A DNA stretch of 64,000 nt, from positions 64,001-128,000 of the forward strand of contig JBCBZT010000009.1 of NCBI GenBank assembly GCA_039815185.1, written 5' to 3'. The translations under genes were made by a program, and so were the position numbers. How positions within the stretch are numbered: position 1 is the first letter of the stretch; each line of letters starts with the position of its first letter. Under the pieces are notes generated by a model. That model was not told the origin of the DNA. It did no database searches and saw only the letters and a list, made by a program, of their open reading frames with translations. Of the stretch, positions 28,846 through 37,626 are shown piece after piece. This DNA comes from Cyanobacteria bacterium P01_A01_bin.123. Its GTDB lineage: Bacteria; Cyanobacteriota; Cyanobacteriia; Phormidesmidales; Phormidesmidaceae.

Positions 28846-28922
28846 CGTCGCGTTCTTACAATTTTCTTTAGCAGGCTTGAGATACATTGCAGACATACGC
28901 CTCATCGACCAAGGATTATGTC

Positions 28923-30125
28923 ATGCGAATCAAAAATGAACTACTCAAGCAAATTAAACACCATATCTATGAATTATCTGTGAATATCGGCGAAAGGCCA
29001 ACCGGCTCAGCGGCAAATCACAGCGCAGAGAATTATATTAAGCAGGTCTTTGTCCAAAACGGGTTTCAGGTCAAATTACAGAGATTTAACTGCATCGATT
29101 GGGAGAAAAATGAAGCGACCTTAAACGTTGGGAATACTGAAGTGTCTGTTGAACCTTCACCATATTCGTTGCCCTGTGATATTCAAGCTGACATCGAGGT
29201 GATAGAAACCCTTTTTCAACTGGAGAAAGCTGATCTGGTGGACAAAATCGCTGTATTATGCGGTGAACTAACCCAAGAGTCACTAATGCCGAAAAACTTC
29301 AGGTTTTATAATCCTGAATACCATCAAAGAATCATTAATCTGCTTGAAGAAAAGACCCCTGCAGCAATACTAACGACTAGCTTGAATGACAACCACCTGA
29401 CGCCTGTATTTGAAGATGGTGACTTCAATATTCCATCTGCTGTATTTTTTGAAAATGATAAAGACAGGGTTAGACAAAGCGACTTGCCGATTCATTTAAA
29501 GATCAGCAGCAGCAGGCATAAAGCAGTCGGCGCGAATGTTATTGCTCGGAAAAATCAGACTAATGAAAATAAATTTGTTATCACTGCCCACTTTGATACT
29601 AAGCCAGGAACACCGGGTGCGCTGGATAACGCTGTAGGTGTTGCTGTATTGCTGACGCTATCAGAGATGTTGAAAGATACGATGCCGGTACATGTTGGCG
29701 TTGAACTAGTTGCTTTCAATGGTGAAGATTACTTCTCTATTCCGGGACAAATGGCTTATCTTGATACATACAGCAGTGAATTTAATAAGATTAAGCTTGC
29801 CATAAACTGCGATGGATTAGGATTGAAAAATAGTACAACGGGTGTATCTTTGATGGAATGTTCGGAAAATTATGTTGCCCATATTGAATCAATCAATCAG
29901 TCTTTTAGCAATATTGAAAAACTATCCCCTTGGTATCAAGGAGATCACATGCTATTTGCCTCGGCACAAGTCCCGACCCTTGCGATAACGTCCACCGGAA
30001 TATTTGAGCTGATGGATACTATTATCCATACCCAGAACGATAAACTAAACTTGGTTGATCCAGAATTGATTGGTGAAGTTTGCCTCTTCTTACAGCAGAT
30101 TATAAATTCGAGCAATTTAGACTAA
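28923..30125 (+). CDS. M28 family metallopeptidase
   Basis: IGERPTGS, TAHFDT, GALDNAVG, FNGED, GDH, IHTQND. Confidence 0.85.
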   Translation: MRIKNELLKQIKHHIYELSVNIGERPTGSAANHSAENYIKQVFVQNGFQVKLQRFNCIDWEKNEATLNVGNTEVSVEPSPYSLPCDIQADIEVIETLFQLEKADLVDKIAVLCGELTQESLMPKNFRFYNPEYHQRIINLLEEKTPAAILTTSLNDNHLTPVFEDGDFNIPSAVFFENDKDRVRQSDLPIHLKISSSRHKAVGANVIARKNQTNENKFVITAHFDTKPGTPGALDNAVGVAVLLTLSEMLKDTMPVHVGVELVAFNGEDYFSIPGQMAYLDTYSSEFNKIKLAINCDGLGLKNSTTGVSLMECSENYVAHIESINQSFSNIEKLSPWYQGDHMLFASAQVPTLAITSTGIFELMDTIIHTQNDKLNLVDPELIGEVCLFLQQIINSSNLD

Positions 30126-30319: not shown

Positions 30320-31819
30320 TTACAAAGCGTGCACCTTCTGCTGTACTTCCGCAAACGCTTGTTCAGGACTCAAGGGTTTGTAAGTCAGATTCGACACCAC
30401 AATAAATACCACCAGGCCAATCACTGGACTAATCATTGTGGGGAGCCCATCAAACGCAGCGGTAAAGAGCGAATTGGGAATATACAGCAGTGTGTTGTCC
30501 ACCCCAAACATTGTCGGCATCAGCACAAATAAAGAAAGTCGAGTCAGTGACCCAATAATGATGCAAGCTAAAGCACCCTGCCAAGTCGCACGACGCCAAA
30601 ATAAACCCCCTGTTAAGGGCACCACTAGCCCCGCAAATCCGAGATCAAAAGCTAACAATAACAGCACCCCCGTCTGCGGTACCCGAATGGCAAAAAATAC
30701 CCCCAGCAAGGTGATAAACACCGCCATGAGTCGGGTAATCAGCAGCAGTCTATCCCCACCAGCGCCATGGGCATTACTATGTCGAATGCCTAAGACGTTA
30801 TGGGCAATGACGGATGAGGTTCCTAAAATTGCCCCATCAGCCGTGGACAACGAAGCTGACATAATCGCCGCAATCACGATCAAACTCAAAACAGGGGGCA
30901 CCACATTTTGCAGCAATGCAAAGAGCACTGGCCCATCAGCAGTTACCCCCACCTGTTCTAGGATGCGGTTGGCAGATAGGGCAATGACAGAAAAAGGAAT
31001 CCCAATGATCAATGTGCCAGCAAAGCCGATAAAGCAGGCTCTTTGAGCCGTTTCTGGACTTTCAGCTGCAAACACTCGGGCCATAAAATCAATGGCAACA
31101 ATGTCGCCTAACCCCAGTGCTAGGATGGTGGCCCAGTTAATCGTGGCTCCAGCATCTGCAACGGTGAGCTGCTCAAAGTCAAAGGGACCCATGCCCGCAG
31201 GCACCGTCAAGCCAAAGGTTGTGCCGATAAAGCCAATCAGCAACAAAGACCCCACTAAGGCAATCAAGACCTGAATCGCATCAGTGTAGGCCACGGCAAA
31301 CAATCCCCCAGAAACCGTGTAAACAAACACCAAGGAAGCAATCAGCGTTATTCCCCCGATATACCCAATGCCCAGGAAGGCTTCAAACAAATATCCCCCC
31401 GCGACTAAGTTTCCTGCAAGTAAAAATGAAAAGCTCAACACCATAATTACGGCAGCGACGAACTCTGTCGTGCGGCCATATTTGACTCGGTAAAAATCAG
31501 GCAGGGTAATTAAGCCCATTCGATTCAAAGGCTTAGCGTAGAACAGCCCCGTGAGCAGTAGACAAAGGGCGAGTCCAATGGGTAATGATGCGCCAGCCCA
31601 AAAGCCAAACGCTGCTGACAAATCGGTGTTACCTAACGTCGCGTTAGAATCCACTGACTGAGCCATCAATGTCGCCGCCGCCAGGGGTAAGGTCAGGCCC
31701 CGACCCGCTACCAAAAAATTAACGCTATCGCCTTTAATTTGCTGAGATGCCCAGACACCAACACCTAACGTGCCTAAGAGGAATACGATAATTCCCCAGG
31801 AATAAATCGTGTTTTCCAT
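30320..31819 (-). CDS. Sodium:solute symporter (SSS) family protein
   Basis: FLVAGR, TLPDFY, YTVSGGLFAVAYTD, SASLSTAD; about 13 TM segments. Confidence 0.9.
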   Translation of the reverse strand: MENTIYSWGIIVFLLGTLGVGVWASQQIKGDSVNFLVAGRGLTLPLAAATLMAQSVDSNATLGNTDLSAAFGFWAGASLPIGLALCLLLTGLFYAKPLNRMGLITLPDFYRVKYGRTTEFVAAVIMVLSFSFLLAGNLVAGGYLFEAFLGIGYIGGITLIASLVFVYTVSGGLFAVAYTDAIQVLIALVGSLLLIGFIGTTFGLTVPAGMGPFDFEQLTVADAGATINWATILALGLGDIVAIDFMARVFAAESPETAQRACFIGFAGTLIIGIPFSVIALSANRILEQVGVTADGPVLFALLQNVVPPVLSLIVIAAIMSASLSTADGAILGTSSVIAHNVLGIRHSNAHGAGGDRLLLITRLMAVFITLLGVFFAIRVPQTGVLLLLAFDLGFAGLVVPLTGGLFWRRATWQGALACIIIGSLTRLSLFVLMPTMFGVDNTLLYIPNSLFTAAFDGLPTMISPVIGLVVFIVVSNLTYKPLSPEQAFAEVQQKVHAL

Positions 31820-31867
31820 GTCCTATTCTCCTAAGTTATGAGCTGTAACCTCTAAATAGGTAGCAAC

Positions 31868-31927
31868 AACAAAGCCCGAGAGAAATTGGCGATCTCTTAA
31901 CAAGATCAACCAATATCTCCCGGGCTT
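31868..31927 (-). terminator. Riboswitch expression-platform terminator
   Basis: Minus strand GCCCGGGAGA...TCTCTCGGGC followed by TTTGTTGTT; the 5' arm overlaps the aptamer 3' end. Confidence 0.75.
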
Positions 31928-32033
31928 TTATCCCTCCGTGAACCAAGGTAAATCGCACTTAATGCATTTACCCTAGCTGTATCTCTTGGACCAGACACTC
32001 AACCGATAAGTTGAGTCGGAACCCTAGATACAA
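31916..32033 (-). ncRNA. Guanidine-I riboswitch (ykkC-yxkD motif)
   Basis: Minus strand CTAGGGTTCCG...CTGGTCCAAGAG...CACGGAGGGATAAAAGCCCGGGAG matches the ykkC subtype-1 signature. Confidence 0.92.
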
Positions 32034-32162
32034 TGTCTATAAATCGTTATTTGCAACCGCCATTTAGCAGTGAAGAAAAGATGCAGTCAAAAACGGATTA
32101 AGTTCTCGCAAGCTGCATCAATTAGTTACTCGTATTGTTATCAATAGTCCTCAGACTAATAA

Positions 32163-32176
32163 GTATTGGCTGATAC
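32163..32176. promoter_or_regulatory. NtcA consensus site
   Basis: GTA-TTGGCTGA-TAC (GTA-N8-TAC), about 130 bp upstream of the riboswitch. Confidence 0.5.
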
Positions 32177-32217: not shown

Positions 32218-32745
32218 TTAGCAAATGAATGAACGAAGCCCCGTAGAATTCGTATAGTCTCTGGACATGATTAAAAACTGATCTTGACTGCCACGTTTCA
32301 TAAACGTCCCTACGGGCTCAAATCCTAGCTTTTGCCAGACTCGCTGTGCCCGCTGATTAAAGGCTGCGATGGTTACTCGTAGGATTGACGCACCATAGCA
32401 GGCTCTACCGTATTGCACTACTGCTTGGGCGTACTGCACACCACGCTTTTGCCCCGTTAAATCAGGTCGAATTCCCATGCCGATGTCTAAAGCGCCAGGA
32501 GGATAGCTGCCACCGGGGACTTGGCCATCCGTACCAAAGGAACAATACCCCTCTAACTCTCCATCAGGATTCAAAATGGCATAGAAAGCGTTTCTAGGGT
32601 TGAGCAAATAGGTGAGATCGTCTTCTATGGTTGTGGGACTAAAGTTATACCCCTCATAGGGTGGATCATAGTGCCAGGTGAATAAGGCCAGTGCATGGTT
32701 TTTATCAAGCGGTAGAAACTTCAAGTCCATAGCAACCGCTGCCAT
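32218..32745 (-). CDS. GNAT family N-acetyltransferase
   Basis: DIGMGIRPDLTGQKRG, AAFNQRAQRVWQKLGF. Confidence 0.85.
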   Translation of the reverse strand: MAAVAMDLKFLPLDKNHALALFTWHYDPPYEGYNFSPTTIEDDLTYLLNPRNAFYAILNPDGELEGYCSFGTDGQVPGGSYPPGALDIGMGIRPDLTGQKRGVQYAQAVVQYGRACYGASILRVTIAAFNQRAQRVWQKLGFEPVGTFMKRGSQDQFLIMSRDYTNSTGLRSFIC

Positions 32746-36147: not shown

Positions 36148-37626
36148 TCAAAATTCAGACTGTTCCTTATGCTTAACTTCTTCTAATGCCTGGCTGCTGA
36201 TTCCTGACGCCTGACTGCCGTCTTTCCGATTCAAGATTGGTTGAACCACCGCGTAAGTTAGCAAACTAGCGGCCATCCCTGGCAAGACCTCATACAGATC
36301 ATCAGACCAGTGCAGGCCCATGCGCCAAAACAGCGCTGTAGCGACGCCAATGATCATCATGGCCAGGGCCGTCGTCGTCCTTAGCGATCGCCCCAAAACC
36401 CGGACTAGCAATAGCGACCCCAAACTCGCCGCGAGCGCCGCCCAAGCAAAGGTCACCAGCACAAACACATCACTGGGGCTGACTAAAGCCAACCCCAGAA
36501 TCACCACAACCATCACGACTGTGCCAACCTTGGCCCATAAGTAGGATTTGGCCGCGCTGGGAAATAAATCTTGGGTCAGCGCTGCAGAACAAGCCAAAAG
36601 CTGACCTTCCGCTGTGGAAATGGTGGCCGAAAATAGCCCCACTAACACTAGCCCCACAAGCCCCATCGGCAAAACAGCTTCGGCCAAGACGGGCAAAGCA
36701 AGTTCTGTGTCTCCGGTGGCTAATTCTGGGAGTAGAATGCGGGCTCCTAAACCCACGATAGTTGCCGTTAAAGACAATACGGCGTTGAGTGCCAGATAGA
36801 GATTGCGAGCTTTGTCGACCTGCTCAACGCTGTCGATAGCCATCATCCGAATCATGATGTGGGGCTGGCCGACTACGCCAAAGCCCGACACCATCCAGGC
36901 CAAAATAAAAGGGACAGCACCAAACTTAAGCCCTGTAGGCACTAGGCTGGTTAAGTTAGGGTCGATTGTATTGAGTGTCCTCCAAAAGTCTGAGATGTTG
37001 CCGACATTGGCGATCGCGACCCCAGCCAACAGCACCATAGAACCAATCATTAATATTGACTGGATTGACCCCACCCAAATTGAGGCGCGAATGCCGCCGG
37101 AGATGGCATAAATGGCTACAATCGCCGCCCCCAGGCCAATCCCGATAGAAATATCCCAACCGAAGAGGACGCTAAGGGCTTTGCTACCCGCTTGCAGTTG
37201 GGCCGCAGCGTAAACCCCTAAAAAGCAAAGGGTGAAGAGAGCCGCGATCGCCGTAATCCAGCGTCCCCCGTCAATCCCGTGGCCCAAGAATGCGGCAAAC
37301 GTTTCAGAATTGGTGGCTTCAGAATCCCGCCTGAGTCGTTTGTGTACCACCAGCCAAGCCAGCGTATCTCCCAGTACATAACCAATGGACAACCAAATCG
37401 CTGCTAAGCCAATGGTGTAAGTAAACCCAATCAGGCCAATGAACATGAACCCGCTGTTGCCCGTCGCTACCGCAGACAAAGCTGCCAACCATGGATTCAC
37501 CCCCCGCCCTGCTAGCAAATAGTCTTCGGTGGTGTCTTGTTTTTGGAATCCGGCGTAAATGCCGACGCCGATAAACAACACGATAAAGCTGGAGAAAATC
37601 CACAAAACAGGCGAACGGTCTAGCAT
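36148..37626 (-). CDS. Sodium/proline symporter (PutP-like)
   Basis: EDYLLAGR, ALSAVATGNSGFMFIGL, GQPHIMIR. Confidence 0.82.
   Translation of the reverse strand: MLDRSPVLWIFSSFIVLFIGVGIYAGFQKQDTTEDYLLAGRGVNPWLAALSAVATGNSGFMFIGLIGFTYTIGLAAIWLSIGYVLGDTLAWLVVHKRLRRDSEATNSETFAAFLGHGIDGGRWITAIAALFTLCFLGVYAAAQLQAGSKALSVLFGWDISIGIGLGAAIVAIYAISGGIRASIWVGSIQSILMIGSMVLLAGVAIANVGNISDFWRTLNTIDPNLTSLVPTGLKFGAVPFILAWMVSGFGVVGQPHIMIRMMAIDSVEQVDKARNLYLALNAVLSLTATIVGLGARILLPELATGDTELALPVLAEAVLPMGLVGLVLVGLFSATISTAEGQLLACSAALTQDLFPSAAKSYLWAKVGTVVMVVVILGLALVSPSDVFVLVTFAWAALAASLGSLLLVRVLGRSLRTTTALAMMIIGVATALFWRMGLHWSDDLYEVLPGMAASLLTYAVVQPILNRKDGSQASGISSQALEEVKHKEQSEF

Follow-up and report, generated by a model that had tools for sequence, protein, structure and literature searches.

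Structure of the locus

The window analyzed here is a 64,000-nt stretch (positions 64,001–128,000) of contig JBCBZT010000009.1 from the genome assembly of Cyanobacteria bacterium P01_A01_bin.123 [GCA_039815185.1], which is 99.99% complete and 6% contaminated. It contains a gene for an SSS-family transporter preceded by a guanidine riboswitch and a putative nitrogen-controlled promoter. The following features were recognized:

30320–31819, minus strand: gene for an SSS-family transporter (SLC5/LeuT fold) of 499 aa, a candidate guanidinium importer (Pfam SSF, structural model, context, co-occurrence)
31828–31832, minus strand: ribosome-binding site AGGAG, 8 nt before the ATG (sequence; GGA conserved in the leader alignment)
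31862–31929, minus strand: predicted intrinsic terminator whose left arm is common with the aptamer 3' end, an ON-switch layout (fold, 46 of 46 leaders, covariation)
31915–32038, minus strand: Guanidine-I (ykkC subtype 1) aptamer (Rfam RF00442)
32135–32143, minus strand: predicted extended −10 element, TG followed by a hexamer that starts with TA 22 nt after the NtcA box (sequence)
32163–32176, minus strand: NtcA box GTA-N8-TAC, a predicted activator site (perfect match; missed in the earlier note)

The aptamer 3' end and the ATG of the SSS open reading frame are separated by 98 nt. The downstream neighbor (28887–30125, plus strand) converges on the SSS gene, and a homologue of the upstream GNAT gene (32218–32745, minus strand) was revealed in only one of 80 related loci. 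For these two reasons the SSS gene is regarded as a stand-alone gene directly downstream of the switch, as the earlier note had described it, and an operon with its neighbors in the window was rejected.

The riboswitch and its terminator

The full ykkC subtype-1 aptamer claimed in the earlier note was recovered by an Rfam search: the Guanidine-I model RF00442 matched over its whole length (model positions 1–107) with 89.1 bits (E = 1.2e-14; gathering score 63), and it was the sole Rfam match within the window. The aptamer extends 5 nt past the end given in that note, and the promoter about 140 nt past it. In the Burkholderia aptamer the bases contacting guanidinium are G54, A55, G107, G108 and G125 (PMC8457001); by the motif and the 18-nt spacing in comparison with that structure, the contact bases of the window aptamer are G31985, A31984, G31937, G31936 and G31919. 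According to the same paper, the A55 position is a uridine in the ppGpp and PRPP subtypes, and alkylated guanidines are sterically shut out of the aptamer pocket. In the window aptamer the equivalent of A55 is kept as adenine (A31984); because of this, and because of the linkage to gdmH described below, a subtype 2 ligand (ppGpp or PRPP) was rejected. By class membership the RNA is a Guanidine-I riboswitch, and it is predicted to bind guanidine and to raise read-through in response.

The overlap of the aptamer 3' end with a terminator stem, also described earlier, agrees with the predicted fold. In the minimum-energy structure the aptamer 3' end (31910–31929) pairs with positions 31871–31889, and a U-rich but imperfect tail follows. 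The fold of the leader has a z-score of −6.3, none of 200 shuffles being equally stable, and the terminator hairpin by itself has −37.9 kcal/mol. The hairpin is absent from the six sites that a simple terminator scan listed in the window because its long interrupted stem falls outside the scan rule. A 3' partner strand and a hairpin of −24 to −45 kcal/mol were found in all 46 leaders.

Covariation was analyzed in the window leader and 25 of the 45 homologous leaders. In these 26 aligned sequences the terminator helix is 84% paired, with 13 of its 25 pairs altered on both sides. For the complete window fold we obtained 84.5% paired cells and 192 cells altered on both sides, values that are favored by taking the structure from one row of the alignment. 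None of 500 shuffles matched the observed pairing, and slid partners reached at most 50.6%.

The NtcA box and the predicted promoter

The box upstream of the aptamer corresponds perfectly to the NtcA consensus given in section 8 of PMC12704784, where the same motif and NtcA control are described for gdmH and gimA of Synechocystis. Of the 46 leaders, 33 have a box of this type no more than 260 nt upstream of the aptamer, versus 3.4 expected from shuffles, and the box can also be seen in the leader alignment. In 30 of the 33 box-bearing leaders TA is located exactly 22 nt past the box. The −10 hexamer of the window is imperfect, as it is without the final T of TAN3T, which we take to be the consensus, and it was not listed in a sigma-70 scan of the window. 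The whole arrangement is that predicted for an NtcA-activated promoter, with GTA-N8-TAC about 22 nt before the −10 element.

Given the combination of an NtcA box with a guanidine switch, the gene is predicted to be expressed only if nitrogen shortage coincides with the presence of guanidine. Nitrogen shortage would switch the promoter on through NtcA; when guanidine is lacking the leader would fold the terminator, while bound guanidinium would hold the aptamer 3' end and let transcription run on. A perfect NtcA box was also found about 200 nt upstream of the gdmH riboswitch of the same genome (locus L003, 13308–13321, minus strand).

The transporter is related to choline transporters

The 499-aa protein matched Pfam SSF with 113 bits (cut-off 22.8) and was under the curated cut-off of all eight NCBIfam models matched; TIGR00813, for instance, gave 113.8 versus a cut-off of 184. 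The scores of PutP (111 of 515.5), PanF (87 of 328) and ActP (32 of 750) led us to reject these identities and, with them, proline, pantothenate and acetate as substrates. The window contains a second SSS gene (36148–37626, minus strand), located 4.3 kb away. Its product is 24% identical to the first and PutP-like by score, though below the cut-off, and Rfam revealed no match, and hence no riboswitch, at this gene; it was rejected as unrelated to the transporter considered here.

The best fold match of the predicted model (pLDDT 76, pTM 0.81) is CHT1 (TM 0.74). All top fold matches are SSS proteins, with DUR3 at rank 34 or lower, and a profile of the clade gave E values of 1e-50 for CHT1 and 1e-13 for DUR3. 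A quick tree of 68 rows groups 29 of them in a clade (support 99), apart from the rows with the CHT-like TW motif. By both sequence and fold the closest solved relatives are CHT1 (SLC5A7) and sfCHT (PMC13220886), organic-cation carriers with an Na2 site, and their identity to the window protein is about 22–25%.

Residues S325 and T326, the Na2-site hydroxyls of core helix 8, align to the CHT1 motif and are invariant in all 171 clade sequences. Positions Q54, D57, N59, N137 and D/N239, placed by sequence alignment, are specific to the clade and near-invariant in the same 171 sequences; D244 and D392 are invariant in the clade but common to outside relatives. The cage aromatics of sfCHT (W99, Y126, W176, W298 and W445) align to S55, L83, L133, A242 and L387. 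Thus none of the five members of this cage of four Trp and one Tyr is kept, and choline was rejected as a substrate. Judged from its sequence, the protein belongs to the choline-transporter branch, with the Na2 residues kept and the cage replaced by polar and acidic residues. An acid/amide pocket of this kind would suit a planar, hydrogen-bond-donating cation. GimA has been modelled with two aspartates and aromatic residues (PMC12704784).

DUR3 urea/H+ symporters resemble the window protein in belonging to the SSS family and in carrying a small nitrogen solute. They are distant, however, and do not have the Na+ serine of TM8, whose loss a preprint on DUR3 ties to proton coupling, whereas the window clade keeps S325 and T326. 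No DUR3 chain was present among 11 single-sequence matches, and identity with DUR3 was rejected. Urea, choline and proline, which the earlier note named as solutes that would speak against its proposal, consequently look unlikely, given the distance to DUR3, the absent cage and a PutP score far below the cut-off. It should be mentioned that conserved Na+ residues may not guarantee Na+ coupling; S. aureus PutP is an SSS protein that keeps them and yet is not stimulated by Na+ (PMC7918813).

Loci of the close homologues

We typed by motif search and BLAST the loci of the best 80 of 209 confirmed relatives in species genomes, which are 58–87% identical and nearly all cyanobacterial. The switch is directly shared by 45 of the 80 loci, where it lies within 260 nt upstream, and in seven of these 45 a divergently oriented gdmH has a second switch, so that the two switches stand back to back. 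At 14 loci the gene ends a co-oriented run, 12 times after hypB (in most cases gdmH-hypA-hypB), once in the order switch-gdmH-SSS and once with a switch and a hypB remnant; at six more it is divergent from gdmH, without a switch of its own. Four loci with less than 350 nt upstream were left out. A switch or the company of gdmH genes was revealed at 65 of the remaining 76 evaluable loci; the other 11 have neither a switch nor gdmH nearby, and Rfam detected no guanidine switch in any of them. In locus L053 the transporter gene and ABC genes stand in one run.

At two switchless loci SMR-family genes are divergent from the transporter gene and 60 nt apart from it (L066, 5477–5941, minus strand; L068, 5102–5941, minus strand).

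Most guanidine switches control exporters (PMC12186494), and no SMR family gene was found in the genome of the window, so the protein could be imagined to export excess guanidinium in place of the missing Gdx. We consider this extremely improbable. An NtcA box spaced as for an activator suggests that the gene is induced when nitrogen is short, and in gdmH operons the gene stands in the place of the importer genes. Uptake is the direction driven by SSS proteins (PMC7918813), and SMR genes occur right beside the transporter in two loci.

Guanidine genes in the same genome

For guanidinium uptake, the reading we prefer, the partner genes of the genome are informative. Exactly one other Guanidine-I match was found, on contig C101 (locus L003), and it precedes gdmH, hypA, a gene for a type III glutamate-ammonia ligase, hypB and an ABC system (gimABC). 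The GdmH encoded there, with hypA and hypB adjacent, has T, H and W at spacings of 117 and 91, and the guanidinase signature reported for N. inopinata is T105, H222 and W313 (PMC11410670). The guanidine hydrolase that the earlier note proposed to look for is thus present with its full signature. Urease and two UrtA copies over the cut-off are also encoded. No match over the cut-off to urea/guanidine carboxylase was revealed in the genome, and the carboxylase route was rejected.

The ligase gene (TIGR03105 over the cut-off; L003, 9843–11204, minus strand) lies inside the Guanidine-I gdmH-hypA-hypB-gimABC operon, and the same placement was found at L176, L178 and L179. We take this family to be similar to gamma-glutamylmethylamide synthetase, which would hint at the handling of methylguanidine or methylamine. 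The ABC permease and ATPase genes of the operon are separated by a head-on insertion (L003, 4568–6775, plus strand) of a methyltransferase-like gene and a second open reading frame, which probably form a restriction-modification pair.

Co-occurrence in cyanobacterial genomes

In total, we analyzed 301 genomes, namely 300 drawn at a completeness of at least 90% and the genome of the window. The transporter gene was found in 36 of them (12%); 139 contain gdmH, and 160 encode a GimA-like protein. All 36 genomes with the transporter contain gdmH, versus 104 of 265 without it; the search itself revealed gdmH in 35 of the 36, and in the remaining one it is cut by a contig end beside the transporter gene. 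In the family of the host the corresponding numbers are 13 of 13 and 11 of 17. All these counts refer to genomes that are kin and not independent.

The search revealed no GimA-like protein in 14 of 35 gdmH genomes with the transporter, versus 7 of 104 without it (16 of 35 versus 9 of 104 with a stricter cut). Seven gdmH operons were inspected among the 14 transporter genomes without a GimA-like match, and none is continued by ABC genes. Among eight inspected gdmH genomes with neither the transporter nor a GimA-like protein, four have a different ABC set and four no adjacent transporter. The GimA-like query is not specific, since it matched in 42 genomes without gdmH. Both the transporter and a GimA-like protein are present in 21 of the 35 genomes, that of the window included, and L053 holds both in one run; replacement of GimABC is therefore partial, and a strict one-for-one replacement was rejected.

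In genomes without GimA and without the transporter, three loci (L180, L183 and L184) contain a second ABC set under Guanidine-I, composed of an ATPase, a binding protein 24% like GimA, a type III glutamate-ammonia ligase and a permease.

Another conceivable substrate is Ni2+, which GdmH needs as a nickel enzyme and which would account for the co-regulation. In co-oriented runs the transporter gene comes after hypA-hypB, which encode nickel chaperones, D57, N59 and M246 are near-invariant, and at least two His residues are found in one loop in 68 of 80 cyanobacterial copies; the layout of D57, N59 and M246 presumably recalls the NRAMP metal site. We regard nickel import as very unlikely, however. 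HupE/UreJ is equally common in genomes with the gene (28 of 36) and in gdmH genomes without it from five of the same families (30 of 43), whereas GimA-like proteins are depleted. In addition, 70 of the 75 archaeal copies and 6 of the 9 actinobacterial ones have no such His loop. This explanation keeps some weight for the genome of the window because HupE matches there are weak (E = 6e-6).

Predicted function and comparison with known systems

It can be hypothesized from sequence and context that the window transporter is a Na+-coupled guanidinium importer, and we put the probability of this at roughly 70%. The uptake function proposed in the earlier note is supported by the Rfam match, by GdmH and by homologues with the switch; the substrate and the ion are what we infer. 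The cation would be bound through Q54, D57, N59, N137 and D/N239 in the unwound helices, and the conserved Na2 site (S325, T326) would be used for coupling. Inside the cell guanidine would be hydrolysed by GdmH to urea and ammonium, with urease completing the breakdown. The transporter would replace or complement the ABC importer GimABC without consuming ATP.

The gdmH-ghaA-ghaB and gimABC genes of Synechocystis PCC 6803 (PMC12704784) share with the system described here the switch class, the combination of NtcA box and switch, the enzyme and the chaperones. The gdmH switch of Synechocystis binds guanidine with a Kd of about 58 µM; GimABC, whose operon is present in the window genome too, is the tested importer, and a gim mutant fails at 0.1 mM guanidine (PMC12704784). 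In Synechocystis gimABC has its own NtcA promoter and the switch precedes gdmH (PMC12704784), whereas in the window a single SSS secondary carrier, not an ATP-driven ABC system, has its own switch.

The guanidine importers named in the 2025 reviews and papers, as far as their available parts go, are ABC systems, with GimABC tested, and a predicted APC permease. No paper linking guanidine/ykkC switches to SSS symporters was found in the portions of the literature covered, although such a link may appear in the gene lists of the original papers on ykkC, on guanidine utilisation and on GdmH. The word "symporter" occurs zero times in the available texts of PMC12704784, PMC12186494, PMC12623156, PMC11410670 and bioRxiv 2022.08.17.504260, and is absent from the supplement of PMC12704784 and from 12 of the 15 supplements of PMC11410670; the available parts of PMC2211319 and PMC12625717 contain no such pairing either. 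The regulon is thus already known, and the new element would be an SSS carrier in a guanidine role, which we did not find described. If our reading is correct, it would add a third kind of guanidine importer, an SSS protein that groups with the human choline transporter but has a remodelled pocket, and it would explain guanidine uptake in many gdmH strains without GimABC.

Relatives in actinobacteria, archaea and plasmids

A set of 301 genomes from the phylum to which the Rubrobacterales locus L060 belongs yielded seven matches. At five of six new actinobacterial loci gdmH and a Guanidine-I switch were revealed within 1.5-kb flanks, and at two loci Guanidine-I stands on the transporter and Guanidine-III on a divergent gdmH (L174, 2947–3234; L175, 2956–3267). 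Seven records of a plasmid collection matched, and five of them were inspected. An Acaryochloris plasmid has the order switch-SSS, a Rubrobacter plasmid has switch-gdmH-SSS beside urease, and a Nonomuraea plasmid has a divergent gdmH with no switch found; the Haloarcula and Halalkalicoccus plasmids carry a gene for an AbrB/PhoU-type regulator and a ureohydrolase 36% like GdmH, again with no switch found. In Haloarcula marismortui the ureohydrolase is RR_RS02575 and the transporter RR_RS02565. The actinobacterial arrangement switch-gdmH-SSS is of the same design as that of comammox Nitrospira, where a Guanidine-I switch, an ATP-free permease and a guanidinase are combined; that permease, predicted to be a proton symporter, is of the APC family and thus different from SSS (PMC11410670).

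A scan of the more distant subgroup yielded 80 metagenome loci, of which 75 appear to be archaeal, judging from genes for thermosome and deoxyhypusine synthase. They are mostly of low G+C content, and their transporters are about 40% identical to the window protein. A ureohydrolase is present in 42 of the 75 and urease genes in several, and a motif search of the 75 revealed no switch. At the loci of the archaeal branch (L094–L168; L085, 9956–14368; L086, 7255–11548) the transporter gene lies beside genes for the ureohydrolase, thermosome, a urease-gamma-like protein and deoxyhypusine synthase, often together with urease. The position of the GdmH tryptophan is occupied by E in all 39 archaeal ureohydrolases compared (37 near-full-length metagenome sequences and two haloarchaeal ones). 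The archaeal branch keeps the pocket residues of the cyanobacterial clade.

These neighborhoods bear on two further explanations. Urease genes flank the transporter in Rubrobacter and in several archaeal loci, and according to PMC12704784 a "urea transporter" of unspecified kind adjoins gdmH in Synechococcus WH8020, as would be expected of an importer of urea or of organic nitrogen in general that was recruited into the guanidine regulon. The far better E value of the clade profile for CHT1 than for DUR3 and the low fold rank of DUR3 make this highly improbable, as do the two UrtA copies of the genome and the production of urea inside the cell by GdmH. Moreover, in family f2 (the genomes listed are of 2.3–3.0 Mb) the transporter is present in none of 30 genomes, and four of four gdmH loci inspected there carry ABC genes instead.

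The second explanation, import of a substituted guanidine (methylguanidine, guanylurea, agmatine or similar) with free guanidine as a proxy signal, is unlikely but keeps some weight because the archaeal sister branch, with the same pocket residues, adjoins a different ureohydrolase. The ligase gene inside the gdmH operon of the window genome would fit it too, and so would the GimA-like protein already present in 21 of the 35 genomes. On the other hand, the adjacent enzyme of cyanobacteria and actinobacteria has the full signature of GdmH, which is described as highly guanidine-specific (PMC12186494), alkylated guanidines reportedly do not fit the aptamer pocket (PMC8457001), and the transporter is enriched where GimA-like proteins are missing.

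The archaeal contigs are presumably those of ammonia oxidizers, because of their gene content, and the available parts of PMC12625717 and PMC11410670 report no guanidinase in archaeal ammonia oxidizers. It is conceivable, although we think it rather doubtful, that the whole clade, from cyanobacteria, actinobacteria and haloarchaea to these contigs and eukaryote-like proteins, consists of importers of the guanidinium group, and that its archaeal branch gives these archaea an as yet unrecognised way of obtaining ammonia from guanidine or a closely related derivative. Such a branch would point to a possible organic-nitrogen route in nitrifier-like archaea, despite published screens finding no guanidine pathway.

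Seven clade proteins (P0144, P0147, P0149, P0152, P0155, P0157 and P0160) of 717–1002 aa contain long insertions, keep the pocket motif and form a supported sub-branch; by eye, they look eukaryotic.
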